The position numbers were made by a program, and so were the translations under genes. Source: a virus (taxonomy: Duplodnaviria; Heunggongvirae; Uroviricota; Caudoviricetes). From it: 5,393 nucleotides of DNA. The stretch is taken from IMG/VR virus record IMGVR_UViG_2698536508_000029. One strand, written 5' to 3'. Positions 149 through 5,393 of the stretch are shown here, piece after piece; the stretch's first letter is position 1, and each line of letters begins with the position of its first letter. Below the pieces are notes generated by a model. It worked only from the letters and a program-made list of their open reading frames with translations, was not told where the DNA came from and made no database searches.

Positions 149-2453
<2,305 letters not shown>

Positions 2454-2457
<4 letters not shown>

Positions 2458-3524
2458 GATATTTCAATTTTGTCCCACTCCCGCCCGCGACTGTCCCTGT
2501 AACGCGCCGCCATTGAATCTGATTTATGCCCGAGAAGACGTTGAGCAAACTTATCGCCAATCTGATTCCGGTATAGCCTCGCCGACAGGCTGCGCAGTTC
2601 ATGGAATGTTGGCGGGTCTCCATCAAATGAGAGTCCAGATGCATTTCTCGCCTTTGTAAAATACTTAGATACTGTTTTCGGGGAAAGCGGTTCGTGATGC
2701 GTTGATGCAATTATTGTTTCACTGCCGCTGGCCTCCCTGCATTTCTGTAGTGTATCAGCCAATGAGATATTGAGCGCGTCAATCGTTAGCGTCAGCGGAA
2801 TGGCGAGCTTAGCCCCTGTTTTACCCTGCTCAATGTGAAGATGGTTGTCGTTTATGTCTGACCATTTCATTCTGCATAAATCGCCTACTCTCTGCCCTGT
2901 AACGACAGCCAAATCCATTGCCAGCCTCAGCCAGATTGGGAGCGGTTCGGCTGCATGGTAAATCGCGACATATTCATTAGCTGTCAGTCTTGAACGCCTT
3001 ACTTCTGATTTTGCTGTGCGGGTTGCTGTTACCGGATTCGTAGCCACATGCCCCTCGGCTATTGCCTCACGAAAAACGTCAACAAGGGTTGACCTGATTA
3101 ATTTTGCGGAAGCCGCTTTACCTTCTGCTACGTAGGTGTTTAGCATTGCTGCCACCTCTTTCGTTGATATGTCAGCGAGCGGTTTGTCCGGCAATTTTCT
3201 TCGGATTGCCCTGATTTTGCTGGCGTAGTCGAGTAGAGTTTTCGGCCTGATACCCCTCTCGCTGAGGATTGTTTCATATCGGTCAAGCCACGCATGAAGA
3301 GTGATTGCGTCAGCGCCTTTAATTCTGTCTATCAGTGACTCACGCCTGTTCCCGGATAGCAACTCAATATTGGCCTGTATTGCTTCAGTGATTGCTATCC
3401 TCCTGTCTCGGCCTAATCCGAACTCTTTACCCGTCCTTGGGTCCCTGTAGCAGTAATATCCATTGTTTCTTATATAAAGGTTAGGGGGTAAATCCCGGCG
3501 CTCATGACTTCGCCTTCTTCCCAT
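2454..3524 (-). CDS. int: Tyrosine site-specific integrase, lambda Int family, 356 aa
   Basis: Same length as lambda Int. N-terminal ~55 residues (MGRRRSHERRDLPPNLYIRNNGYYCYRDPRTGKEFGLGRDRRIAITEAIQANIEL) match lambda Int from memory. Catalytic signature present: R in GQRVGDLC, K in QGKTGAKLAIP, HELRSLSARL, LLGHKSD and the tyrosine in AARYRD. Confidence 0.95.
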
Positions 3525-3720
3525 TTCTGATCCTCTTCAAAAGGCTACTTGTTACTGGTCGATTTAAGTCAACCTTTACCGCTGATTCGTGGAACAGATA
3601 CTCTCTTCCATCCTTAACCGGAGGAGGGAATATCCTGCATTCGCGCACCCATCGACGAACTGTTTCAAGGCTTCTTGGGCGTCGCTGGCGTGCATTCCAC
3701 TCCTGAAGTGTCAAGTACAT
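3502..3720 (-). CDS. xis: Excisionase Xis, 72 aa
   Basis: MYLTLQEWNARQRRPRSLETVRRWVRECRIFPPPVKDGREYLFHESAVKVDLNRPVT..LLKRIRNGKKAKS is near-identical to lambda Xis from memory (differs at about 2 residues). The 3' end overlaps the int start by 23 bp, as in lambda. Confidence 0.95.
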   Translation of the reverse strand: MYLTLQEWNARQRRPRSLETVRRWVRECRIFPPPVKDGREYLFHESAVKVDLNRPVTSSLLKRIRNGKKAKS

Positions 3721-3746
3721 CGCAAAGTCTCCGCAATTACACGCAA
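3707..3746 (-). promoter_or_regulatory. cII-dependent pI-type promoter (TTGC-N6-TTGC at 3746..3733, weak -10 near the xis ATG)
   Basis: Minus strand reads TTGCGTGTAATTGC-GGAGACTTTGCGA-TGTACT. This is the tetrad repeat TTGC-N6-TTGC of cII-activated promoters, with a poor -10 13 nt downstream overlapping the xis start, so the transcript would begin inside xis and express int without xis. Confidence 0.55.
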
Positions 3747-3767
3747 GAAAAGCCGCATTGATGCGGC
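3744..3767 (-). terminator. Hairpin plus U-tract (candidate intrinsic terminator or attenuator) upstream of xis
   Basis: Minus strand GCCGCA-UCAA-UGCGGC (perfect 6-bp GC-rich stem, 4-nt loop) followed immediately by UUUUCUUG; the U-tract overlaps the first TTGC of the pI site. Confidence 0.45.
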
Positions 3768-3825
3768 AATGGTAGGTCTGGATATCTTGAGAAATGAACA
3801 GGCCTCATTGAGTGTGAGGCTGTGG

Positions 3826-4170
3826 TTAGTCCTTGCGTAGCTCGCTAATTCTTCTGTAAGTCTCTGGTGCTTTGTTTCCGTGTATCTTCATTTCAGACTT
3901 CAACAGAGCGACGAGGGAATCCCATTCGTTGAGGATGCCTTTGAATGCCGGAACGCGCTTTGCAACCTTGTCGAATGAATCTCTGATTTCTGGAATCTGC
4001 TCAACAAGTGCAACGCATCGCCGGAAGTCTGCTGCGTCATGTGGAGCGCCGAAGTGATGACCATAGATATTCTTTTTCAGTCCACATGCGATTGAGGCAA
4101 GAGTTGCGCTACTGATGCCAACATCGCCAGTCGATTGCCATTTCAAAACCTTCATAGCCAAATCTGACAT
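3826..4170 (-). CDS. Hypothetical phage accessory protein, 114 aa
   Basis: ORF with ATG at 4170 preceded by GGAGA 7 nt upstream; stop TAA at 3826-3828. No transmembrane segment evident; contains a His-rich segment GHHFGAPHDAADFRRC. I could not assign it to any family. Confidence 0.7.
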   Translation of the reverse strand: MSDLAMKVLKWQSTGDVGISSATLASIACGLKKNIYGHHFGAPHDAADFRRCVALVEQIPEIRDSFDKVAKRVPAFKGILNEWDSLVALLKSEMKIHGNKAPETYRRISELRKD

Positions 4171-4180
4171 TTCTTGTCTC

Positions 4181-4208
4181 CATAAAACAAAACCCGCCGT
4201 AGCGAGTT
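4181..4208 (-). terminator. Hairpin with UACG tetraloop plus U-tract, ending ~10 nt before the 114-aa gene's RBS
   Basis: Minus strand AACUCGC-UACG-GCGGGUU (7-bp stem including one G-U pair) followed by UUGUUUUAU, then GGAGA and the ATG at 4170. Confidence 0.4.
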
Positions 4209-4260
4209 CAGATAAAAGAAATCCCCGCGAGTGCGAGGATTGTTATTCATTGCCGATATT

Positions 4261-4286
4261 CACCTTTATCGCGAACACCTTTACCG
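4261..4286. repeat. Two direct repeats CACCTTTAYCG (4261-4271 and 4276-4286), 15-bp period
   Basis: 10 of 11 positions identical, separated by 4 bp, lying immediately 3' of the 80-aa ORF stop in the 118-bp non-coding spacer. Confidence 0.35.
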
Positions 4287-4288
4287 GT

Positions 4289-4531
4289 TTATCTCCTTTG
4301 CATGGCGCGTAATTTTTTCAGATGGTTCTCCTGCTCTGTTTCAGCCAGAATTTGTCGGTATTCCTGGTGATCGATCCGTTCAAACAGTTCATTAAAATCG
4401 TTTATTTTTACCGACTGTGTTCGCCCATCCATTCTTCTGTACAACACAGTGTTGTTTATGCAGCGAAGAATTTTTATCGGGTAGCCGGCGCTATCGGTGT
4501 ATATCTGACCACGTTGAATCAGAGCGAACAT
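4289..4531 (-). CDS. Hypothetical small phage protein, 80 aa (possibly DUF4222-like; unverified)
   Basis: ATG at 4531 with GGGGA 7 nt upstream; the tracked 98-aa form starts at a TTG with no RBS. Beta-rich-looking N-terminal part (IQRGQIYTDSAGYPIKILR...VLYRRMDGRTQSVKINDF) and a basic C-terminal tail HLKKLRAMQRR. Confidence 0.65.
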   Translation of the reverse strand: MFALIQRGQIYTDSAGYPIKILRCINNTVLYRRMDGRTQSVKINDFNELFERIDHQEYRQILAETEQENHLKKLRAMQRR

Positions 4532-4605
4532 TCCTTTATCCCCAGCGGAAAAGCGAATACAGAATAAATGCCACCGCGATTGCAACTCCTACAGCGGTGA
4601 ATGCT

Positions 4606-4956
4606 TCAGGCCAATTCATCATTCACTCCCTGCGGCGGTTCTGGTAGCAGCATCCAGTACAAGGCGTTCCCTAACCACGATAAAGTGCCGTCGCTCAACT
4701 CCACGTATTCCTCTTGTACCTGTCCTGCCATATACTCACCGTGCTTTGAATAAATTAAAATCCAATCATCTTGAGCGGGCATTCGCTCACTACAGCTTAT
4801 CCAACCACCCGGACTTACCGGAGAGTTGCCAGTCTTACGCATGGCAATCTCCACGATTTCAACCATATCTCCTGGCAGAATTTTACAAAGCTGGCCAAAG
4901 CGCCTCTGCTGCCTGGCATACTCGAGGATGTGCTCCAGTTTGGTTCGATTAATCAT
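4606..4956 (-). CDS. Phage protein with C-terminal DUF551-like domain, 116 aa
   Basis: ATG at 4956 preceded by AAGGGAG. The C-terminal half (GWISCSERMPAQDDWILIY...LSWLGNALYWMLLPEPP) fits the W-I...P...W...WMPLPEPP pattern I recall for DUF551 phage proteins. Start overlaps the stop of the upstream ORF (ATGA). Confidence 0.75.
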   Translation of the reverse strand: MINRTKLEHILEYARQQRRFGQLCKILPGDMVEIVEIAMRKTGNSPVSPGGWISCSERMPAQDDWILIYSKHGEYMAGQVQEEYVELSDGTLSWLGNALYWMLLPEPPQGVNDELA

Positions 4957-5393
4957 GATTTATCTCCCTTAAGCATGGCTGCACGGCAGGCGTTCCAGCC
5001 TCTCACCTCTGCAATAGCTGCAACAGCATCAACTGTGTACATGCTAAGAGGGTTAGGCATTGGTTTTTCTTCCGGTACTACTGGCGATGGCTGTTTGGCT
5101 TCTAAATCAGCAATTCTGTCAACTACGGCATCGACAGCATCTGAAAAACTGAAACAGTTACTCCACTCAGGCCTATCCCCGGTTGTTGCGAAGTACATAT
5201 CAGCTAAAGCAGACTCAGCATGGTCACGCTCGTTAATGAGTTGCTCTTCGCTTTTTGAGGTGTACTGGCAATAGCGGACTCTACCATTTGTTCTTTTTTC
5301 AAGCAGCCATCTGATGATATTTTTCCCTGAAGGCTGCTGGGGAGATATTCCCCAGACGATAGTGACGACGCTGACGATTGTAGAAAATCTCAT
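4953..5393 (-). CDS. Hypothetical phage protein, >=146 aa (possibly 5'-truncated by the window edge)
   Basis: Open minus-strand frame up to the window edge, where an ATG occupies 5391-5393. Pro/Glu-rich linker AKQPSPVVPEEKPMPNPLS precedes a C-terminal segment MYTVDAVAAIAEVRGWNACRAAMLKGDKS. The true start cannot be fixed because upstream sequence is missing. Confidence 0.6.
   Translation of the reverse strand: MRFSTIVSVVTIVWGISPQQPSGKNIIRWLLEKRTNGRVRYCQYTSKSEEQLINERDHAESALADMYFATTGDRPEWSNCFSFSDAVDAVVDRIADLEAKQPSPVVPEEKPMPNPLSMYTVDAVAAIAEVRGWNACRAAMLKGDKS

Follow-up and report, generated by a model that had tools for sequence, protein, structure and literature searches.

The window analysed here, a stretch of 5,393 nucleotides, ends in two minus-strand reading frames that share an ATGA stop/start overlap, and the question it raises is whether these frames form a dedicated phage gene pair or came together in some other way. 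A preliminary description had interpreted them as a translationally coupled pair, in which a gene of at least 146 codons with a Pro/Glu-rich linker, its 5' end running out of the window, precedes a 116-aa DUF551-like gene, and had likened them to two-component phage modules of fixed stoichiometry. Our analysis points instead, with good though not complete confidence, to an ea22-like gene broken by an IS600 element and followed by an intact DUF551 gene of a lambda-like prophage.

Genomic context of the overlapping reading frames

The window starts with E. coli chromosomal genes and continues into the left arm of a lambda-like prophage. The plus strand carries yfaA (DUF2138; 101-1837) and yfaT/magC (DUF1175; 1807-2439), and the minus strand carries genes for an integrase (2454-3524), an excisionase (3502-3720), a phrog_1229 hypothetical protein (3826-4170), a DUF4222 protein (within 4289-4585) and the intact 116-aa DUF551 protein (4606-4956). 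The start of the DUF4222 gene is uncertain, as the program-made ORF (4289-4585) begins at a TTG and gives 98 aa, while RefSeq and the gene index have an 80-aa protein from an internal ATG. The prophage adjoins yfaT/magC in a chromosome of the E. coli type, meeting the 3' end of this gene (window 1807-2453), and because the integrase gene begins 15 nt past the yfaT/magC ORF the end of yfaT and the attachment site probably overlap. Related prophages sharing its early-left genes were also observed at two further chromosomal sites, one beside panC/panB and the other beside an RND efflux operon.

A megablast search of positions 4200-5393 against complete E. coli genomes recovered the segment 4200-5255 at 100% identity in many EHEC-type strains (O26, O103 and others), in which it is annotated as "DUF4222", "DUF551 domain-containing protein" and "ead/Ea22-like family protein". 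Intact relatives display the order cIII, kil, gam, bet, exo, DUF1317, DUF1382, a hypothetical gene, orf73 (TraR-like), ea22-like, DUF551, DUF4222, a hypothetical gene, xis and int, and the order around the DUF551 gene was borne out in 10 places. The ea22-like slot lies directly 3' of the orf73/TraR-like gene and reads towards xis-int (relatives L001, L002 and L086-L095), and both the ea22-like and the DUF551 genes belong to the leftward early (pL) operon in intact copies. Within the window itself the xis-int side alone is visible, and the stretch probably corresponds to that portion of a lambda-like exo-xis (ea) accessory region which lies farthest from the promoter. At 4190-4241 (minus strand), between the DUF4222 and phrog_1229 genes, are two hairpins that resemble terminators and carry T-runs, and two further ones lie at 3752-3820, upstream of xis; terminator-like sites in the region number 4, against 1.3 expected from shuffled sequences. 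No promoter-like site was found within 3700-5393.

The upstream reading frame and the IS600 element

Homology to phage sequences ends abruptly between positions 5255 and 5256. On the phage side (4953-5255, minus strand) lie 100 codons plus a stop, encoding a segment 100% identical to the C-terminus of the ead/Ea22-like protein WP_012817803.1. On the other side, 5256-5393 is the right end of an IS600 element of the IS3 family, placed on the minus strand in the same orientation as the phage operon. Its terminal inverted repeat TGAGGTGTACTGGCAATAGCGGAC begins at 5256 (TGAGGTG..., starting with TG as in the IS3 family), 133 of its 138 bases match an annotated IS600 copy, and a separate minus-strand frame encodes the C-terminus of the DDE transposase, EIFYNRQRRHYRLGNISPAAFREKYHQMAA, closed by a stop codon. 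This 3' end of orfB runs from 5391 to 5299, its last residues, ...FYNRQRRHYRLGNISPAAFREKYHQMAA and stop, reading towards the end of the terminal repeat. In the reference copy (L002) the element spans 1264 bp and is flanked by a 3-bp target duplication. We regard it as nearly certain that the gene upstream of DUF551 is Ea22-like and that IS600 disrupted it.

The supposed gene of at least 146 codons is accordingly a chimera (4953-5393, minus strand) of 46 IS-derived and 100 phage-derived codons, its residues 1-46 being out-of-frame IS600 and residues 47-146 the last 100 aa of WP_012817803.1. Its first start codon, an ATG at 5393-5391, occupies the final three bases of the window, and extension with the reference IS600 brings the frame to a stop 12 nt past the window; if the element follows the reference, the ORF is therefore exactly 146 codons long and has no lower bound to be extended. 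Likewise, the 5' end of the ea22-like gene does not simply leave the window, as had been supposed, since the insertion sequence parts the remnant from it. The 146-codon chimera is probably not a real gene. A sub-threshold similarity of the chimera to DUF4838 (14.1 bits, under the Pfam cut-off) was rejected as noise. The exact IS600/ea22 junction sequence was unmatched in complete E. coli genomes, GTDB genomes, IMG/VR and JGI metagenomes, and the 146-aa product is absent from the gene index; since neither was recovered from any of the collections searched, the insertion is private or rare, and the 5' half of the gene is described here from intact relatives.

Independent insertions in the exo-xis region were also observed in other strains (L002, 5625-6888; L088, 6789-8017 and 9483-11284; L092, 3796-4952; L093, 3983-5170), the elements concerned being IS600, another IS3-family element, IS21 and an IS91-type element. 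This region of EHEC-type prophages looks like a frequent and tolerated target of insertion sequences in lysogens, and such frequent landing fits its dispensability in that state. In addition, the ea22 slot is without a called gene in L089 and L090 (5402-6001), both of which have an identical DUF551 gene, and these may be further inactivated ea22 alleles.

The intact Ea22-like protein has 185 aa as annotated and 201 aa if translated from a GTG overlapping the orf73 stop. It matches the Pfam family Ead_Ea22 (PF13935) over residues 2-101 with 102.5 bits, and its first 88 aa (185-aa numbering) are 93% identical to lambda Ea22. IS600 entered directly after residue 101, at the end of the Pfam region. 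Ead_Ea22 is matched neither by the 100-aa remnant nor by the 146-aa chimera, and the remnant alone falls in no Pfam family, because IS600 removed the whole Pfam-defined part, which is also why it looked anonymous when first described. An AlphaFold2 model of the intact protein, computed as a monomer, places a long helix (pLDDT >90) at residues 34-126 and a short one at 138-155, followed by a disordered linker (157-175) and, at 170-196, the terminal helix; no PDB chain was matched by its sequence. What remains in the window comprises the last stretch of the coiled coil, the short helix, the Pro/Glu-rich linker and the terminal helix ending in ...GWNACRAAMLKGDKS. The linker, correctly noted in the preliminary description, has the sequence AKQPSPVVPEEKPMPNP (5049-5099, minus strand); it is nearly invariant among homologues and is predicted to be disordered (pLDDT <50 for residues 157-175 of the 201-aa protein).

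[quoted passage not shown] The frame preceding DUF551 is the 3' end of this known regulatory gene, a finding that the preliminary description had itself named as contrary to its proposal. None of Ea22, EaA and Ead appears in a paper that deals with anti-restriction accessory genes (PMC12373910).

The DUF551 protein

The identification of the downstream ORF as DUF551-like was sound, as it matches PF04448 with 38.4 bits against a gathering cut-off of 22, residues 51-109 covering the full profile (1-68). The 116-aa protein is 100% identical to RefSeq WP_001345188.1 and to the copy in L001, and within the assembly collection 8855 indexed blocks contain exactly this sequence. The domain proper (4630-4806, minus strand) is delimited by two motifs, W-I-S-x-S-E-R-M-P at its start and W-M-x-L-P-E-P-P at its end, which appear in the window protein as GWISCSERMP and YWMLLPEPP and whose columns are invariant or almost so across alignments. 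It is modelled as a small five-stranded beta-barrel with a pLDDT of about 90. Foldseek searches of the PDB with this model returned Tudor/Sm/Hfq-like small barrels alone, at non-significant values (E at least 0.06), so that these matches describe the fold class of DUF551 and not homology. The BFVD matches of the model were other DUF551 proteins, and the sequence matched no PDB chain.

Ahead of the domain lies an N-terminal module of residues 1-42, MINRTKLEHILEYARQQ... (4831-4956, minus strand; phrog_24004, residues 1-56), with helices predicted at 4-19 and 28-40 at low pLDDT, and after it comes the linker GNSPVSPGGW. A search of 1.84 billion representative proteins always aligned this module from residue 1 of the proteins containing it. 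Both halves of the protein are portable: the MINR module also occurs at the start of proteins that end in different C-terminal domains, and the DUF551 domain is attached, at 84-93% identity, to a wide range of other N-terminal modules, among them the dATP/dGTP pyrophosphohydrolase domain PF04447, from which it follows that DUF551 is not specific to Ea22. NCBIfam gave nothing useful, and the PADLOC defence models did not match the DUF551, intact Ead, DUF4222 or phrog_1229 proteins.

Conservation of the junction and the mosaic structure of its surroundings

The overlap at 4953-4956 (minus strand) joins the ea22-like remnant to the DUF551 gene, the ATG of the latter (4956-4954) overlapping the upstream TGA (4955-4953). 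A Shine-Dalgarno sequence GGGAGA (4963-4968, minus strand) lies 6 nt ahead of this ATG, with its GGAG core 7 nt ahead, so placed that in the junction AAGGGAGATAAATCATGATT the last upstream codons, K-G-D-K-S-stop, contain the Shine-Dalgarno of the DUF551 gene. This junction is kept in all 77 IMG/VR loci having the N-terminal module MINRxKL..., the upstream ORF ending in ...CRxAML(K/Q)GDK(S) and a stop; the overlap is of 4 nt (ATGA) in 54 of them and of 1 nt (TAATG) in 23. With a conserved overlap, and with the Shine-Dalgarno contained in the final codons of the upstream frame, it is plausible on sequence grounds that intact prophages express the two genes in a coupled manner. The coupled pair of the preliminary description stands as regards its overlap, which is conserved and accompanied by an internal Shine-Dalgarno, but not as an intact pair in this window, where the ea22-like gene is broken. 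The operon has 18 same-strand junctions, of which 7 overlap; in 3 the overlap measures 4 nt, bet/exo and orf73/ea22 being among these, and given this frequency a 4-nt overlap is not distinctive there.

At the 77 loci at least five different, unrelated types of ORF body precede the junction, and the junction DNA is identical between loci that differ in both flanks. Alignments of near-identical modules joined to different partners revealed sharp mosaic break-points at CRAAML, at GNSPVTPDGW and at the ...LPEPPQEV tail. Recombination, and not any requirement for coupling, could hence be what maintains the cassette. The strongest of the alternative explanations takes this further, and holds that the junction, the GNSPVTPDGW linkers and the ...LPEPPQEV tails are mainly boundary sequence for recombination, the overlap reflecting compact packing only. 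It draws on these same break-points and on the identical junction DNA, and agrees with the established model of lambdoid mosaicism (Susskind and Botstein 1978; Clark et al. 2001, as cited in PMC3233612), but leaves unexplained why stop, Shine-Dalgarno and start keep their exact register in all 77 loci. We consider it a credible possibility, albeit one somewhat on the lesser side of even, and it is compatible with an IS600-broken ea22-like gene beside an intact DUF551 gene rather than opposed to it. The strict conservation of this split-junction cassette is the sole point of the present analysis that we did not find stated in the literature, and it is a detail of phage mosaicism and not a new system.

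Two side observations concern the same boundaries. The tail, as ...LPEPPQEVNRG or ...AAPQQEVK, is kept even in proteins whose last domain is not DUF551 (P0137, P0153, P0307, P0334 and P0372), and the linker GNSPVTPDGW recurs between unrelated modules. Tail and linker look like module boundaries conserved at the DNA level.

Genomic association of Ea22-like and DUF551 modules

The co-occurrence of the two families, which the preliminary description had named as a test, was confirmed. An Ead_Ea22 locus lies directly upstream in all 10 of the places listed for the exact DUF551 protein, with a gene called there in 8. Among 80 IMG/VR loci with the closest DUF551 domain, 69 have an Ead segment, either no more than 2.6 kb upstream or as part of one and the same ORF, these being divided into 33 fused forms, 17 with the split junction and 19 with Ead in a separate upstream ORF; in the other 11 no Ead segment was present within 2.6 kb. 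Furthermore, PF13935 and PF04448 occur in one protein in 35 of the 120 best Ea22-like homologues, and many proteins about 90% identical to the window-type Ea22 body carry a fused DUF551. Examples of in-frame fusions include P0133, P0142, P0149, P0151, P0174 and WCJ00126.1 of phage phiSTEC1575-Stx2k, the last with 90% identity over Ead residues 12-181, and in P0174 the Ea22 body is fused to the same DUF551 subtype as that of the window. A functional link between Ea22 and DUF551 is likely.

A second alternative detaches DUF551 from Ea22 altogether, such that it would target host replication or nucleotide metabolism and its adjacency to ea22 would be a matter of mosaic neighbourhood. This has some appeal in view of the fusions to dATP/dGTP pyrophosphohydrolase domains and of YfdS, a DUF551 protein of the cryptic prophage CPS-53, which together with YfdQ and YfdR contributes to inhibiting DnaA-dependent initiation and whose loss leads to H2O2 sensitivity (PMC4776307). 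However, in that system DnaA is bound by YfdR alone and YfdT could replace YfdS (PMC4776307), and an Ead segment lies upstream of, or fused to, the closest DUF551 domain in the 69 of 80 loci given above. On balance we judge an Ea22-independent role to be unlikely.

Less probable still is the proposal originally made for this locus, namely a dedicated and previously unrecognised two-component phage module whose overlap fixes the stoichiometry of its products. It can claim the overlap with its internal Shine-Dalgarno in 77 of 77 loci, the adjacency of the two loci in all 10 of the listed places with this DUF551 protein, and the fused forms, which constitute Rosetta-stone evidence of a functional link. 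Against it, the upstream gene belongs to the known ea22 family and is in the window broken by IS600; the combination of Ea22 and DUF551 has been published as Ea22_V2 (PMC10834534); several unrelated ORF types precede the junction and DUF551 itself is a promiscuous domain; overlapping genes are the rule in this operon; and neither protein matches a PADLOC defence model. Finally, that the insertion created a new functional gene, with an IS-derived leader preceding the Ea22 C-terminal helices and still driving DUF551 translation, appears very improbable despite the start codon at 5393-5391, the 146 open codons (if the IS follows the reference) and the shared orientation of IS600 and operon, as the 46 IS-derived residues are the out-of-frame 3' end of the transposase gene plus the inverted repeat, none of the collections searched contains the product or the junction, positions 3700-5393 revealed no promoter-like site, and the entire Pfam-defined Ea22 region is missing from the remnant.

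A model for expression and function

According to the reading that we favour, of an IS600-broken ea22-like gene and an intact DUF551 gene, IS600 has inserted into the former just past its Pfam-defined region, leaving the last 100 codons in the window. In intact prophages orf73, ea22 and the DUF551 gene would be carried on one pL message, and ribosomes terminating at the ea22 UGA may re-initiate at the overlapping DUF551 AUG, which would couple the expression of the two proteins. We tentatively propose, with slightly less than even confidence, that DUF551 is a detached head of Ea22, that is, a small SH3/Tudor/Sm-like binding domain acting as partner or exchangeable C-terminal domain of an oligomeric coiled-coil Ea22 scaffold, to which it would be joined covalently in the fused forms or as a separate chain in the split ones. 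Through a putative host partner Ea22 would then tilt the lysis-lysogeny decision towards lysogeny. In the window the scaffold is inactivated, so that at most the DUF551 protein and an accidental chimeric peptide could be made, and residual expression of DUF551 would need read-through from the IS or its own ribosome-binding site. Counting against this explanation are the non-significant fold matches of DUF551 (E at least 0.06), the occurrence of the domain on unrelated N-terminal modules, the varied bodies upstream of the junction and the commonness of overlaps.

The invariance of the cassette while both its flanks vary invites a more speculative extension, to which we assign a low probability. 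The cassette, consisting of a helix ...GWNxCRxAML-KGDKS with its stop and the overlapping two-helix module MINRxKLEHILEYA..., might be a putative plug-and-socket adaptor, in which the downstream N-terminal module docks non-covalently on the terminal helix of the preceding scaffold. If this were true, lambdoid phages could mix oligomeric stalks (Ea22-type and others) with heads (DUF551 and others), in split or in fused form. In studies of Ea22, which affects the induction of Stx prophages, the DUF551 gene downstream of it is worth treating as a possible detached Ea22 domain, and the natural split and fused Ea22-DUF551 forms offer a ready-made experiment.

Comparison with known systems

The arrangement described here is already known: both proteins are annotated in RefSeq, E. 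coli assemblies with this arrangement number in the thousands, and a connection of Ea22 with DUF551 has been published (PMC10834534). The insertion element is a slightly diverged copy, about 95-97% identical to IS600 copies of E. coli, of which the window includes 138 bp as against the 1264 bp of the complete reference element. Lambda Ea22 and the Ea22 variants of Stx phages resemble the intact allele in their Ead_Ea22 domain, in their slot between orf73/TraR-like and xis-int and in their build, a flexible linker coming after a long coiled coil; the allele differs in that its C-terminus is instead the ...GWNACRAAMLKGDKS helix, and the gene in the window differs further in being truncated by IS600, with a remnant devoid of the Pfam-defined part. 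YfdS of CPS-53, EaA of P22 and other PF04448 proteins have the DUF551 domain in common with the window protein, whereas their N-terminal parts and genomic neighbours are different. Both families are also united in Ea22_V2 of the Stx phages 933W and Phi24B, which was already described as an Ea22 with DUF551 as its C-terminal domain (PMC10834534). Its representative in 933W, NP_049538.1, aligns with 52% identity over residues 3-85 of the Ead part and with 40% over residues 42-112 of the DUF551 part. Ea22_V2 is, however, a single polypeptide, whereas the intact relatives of the window possess two ORFs joined by the stop/start cassette, and in these the DUF551 protein has a two-helix N-terminal module of its own.
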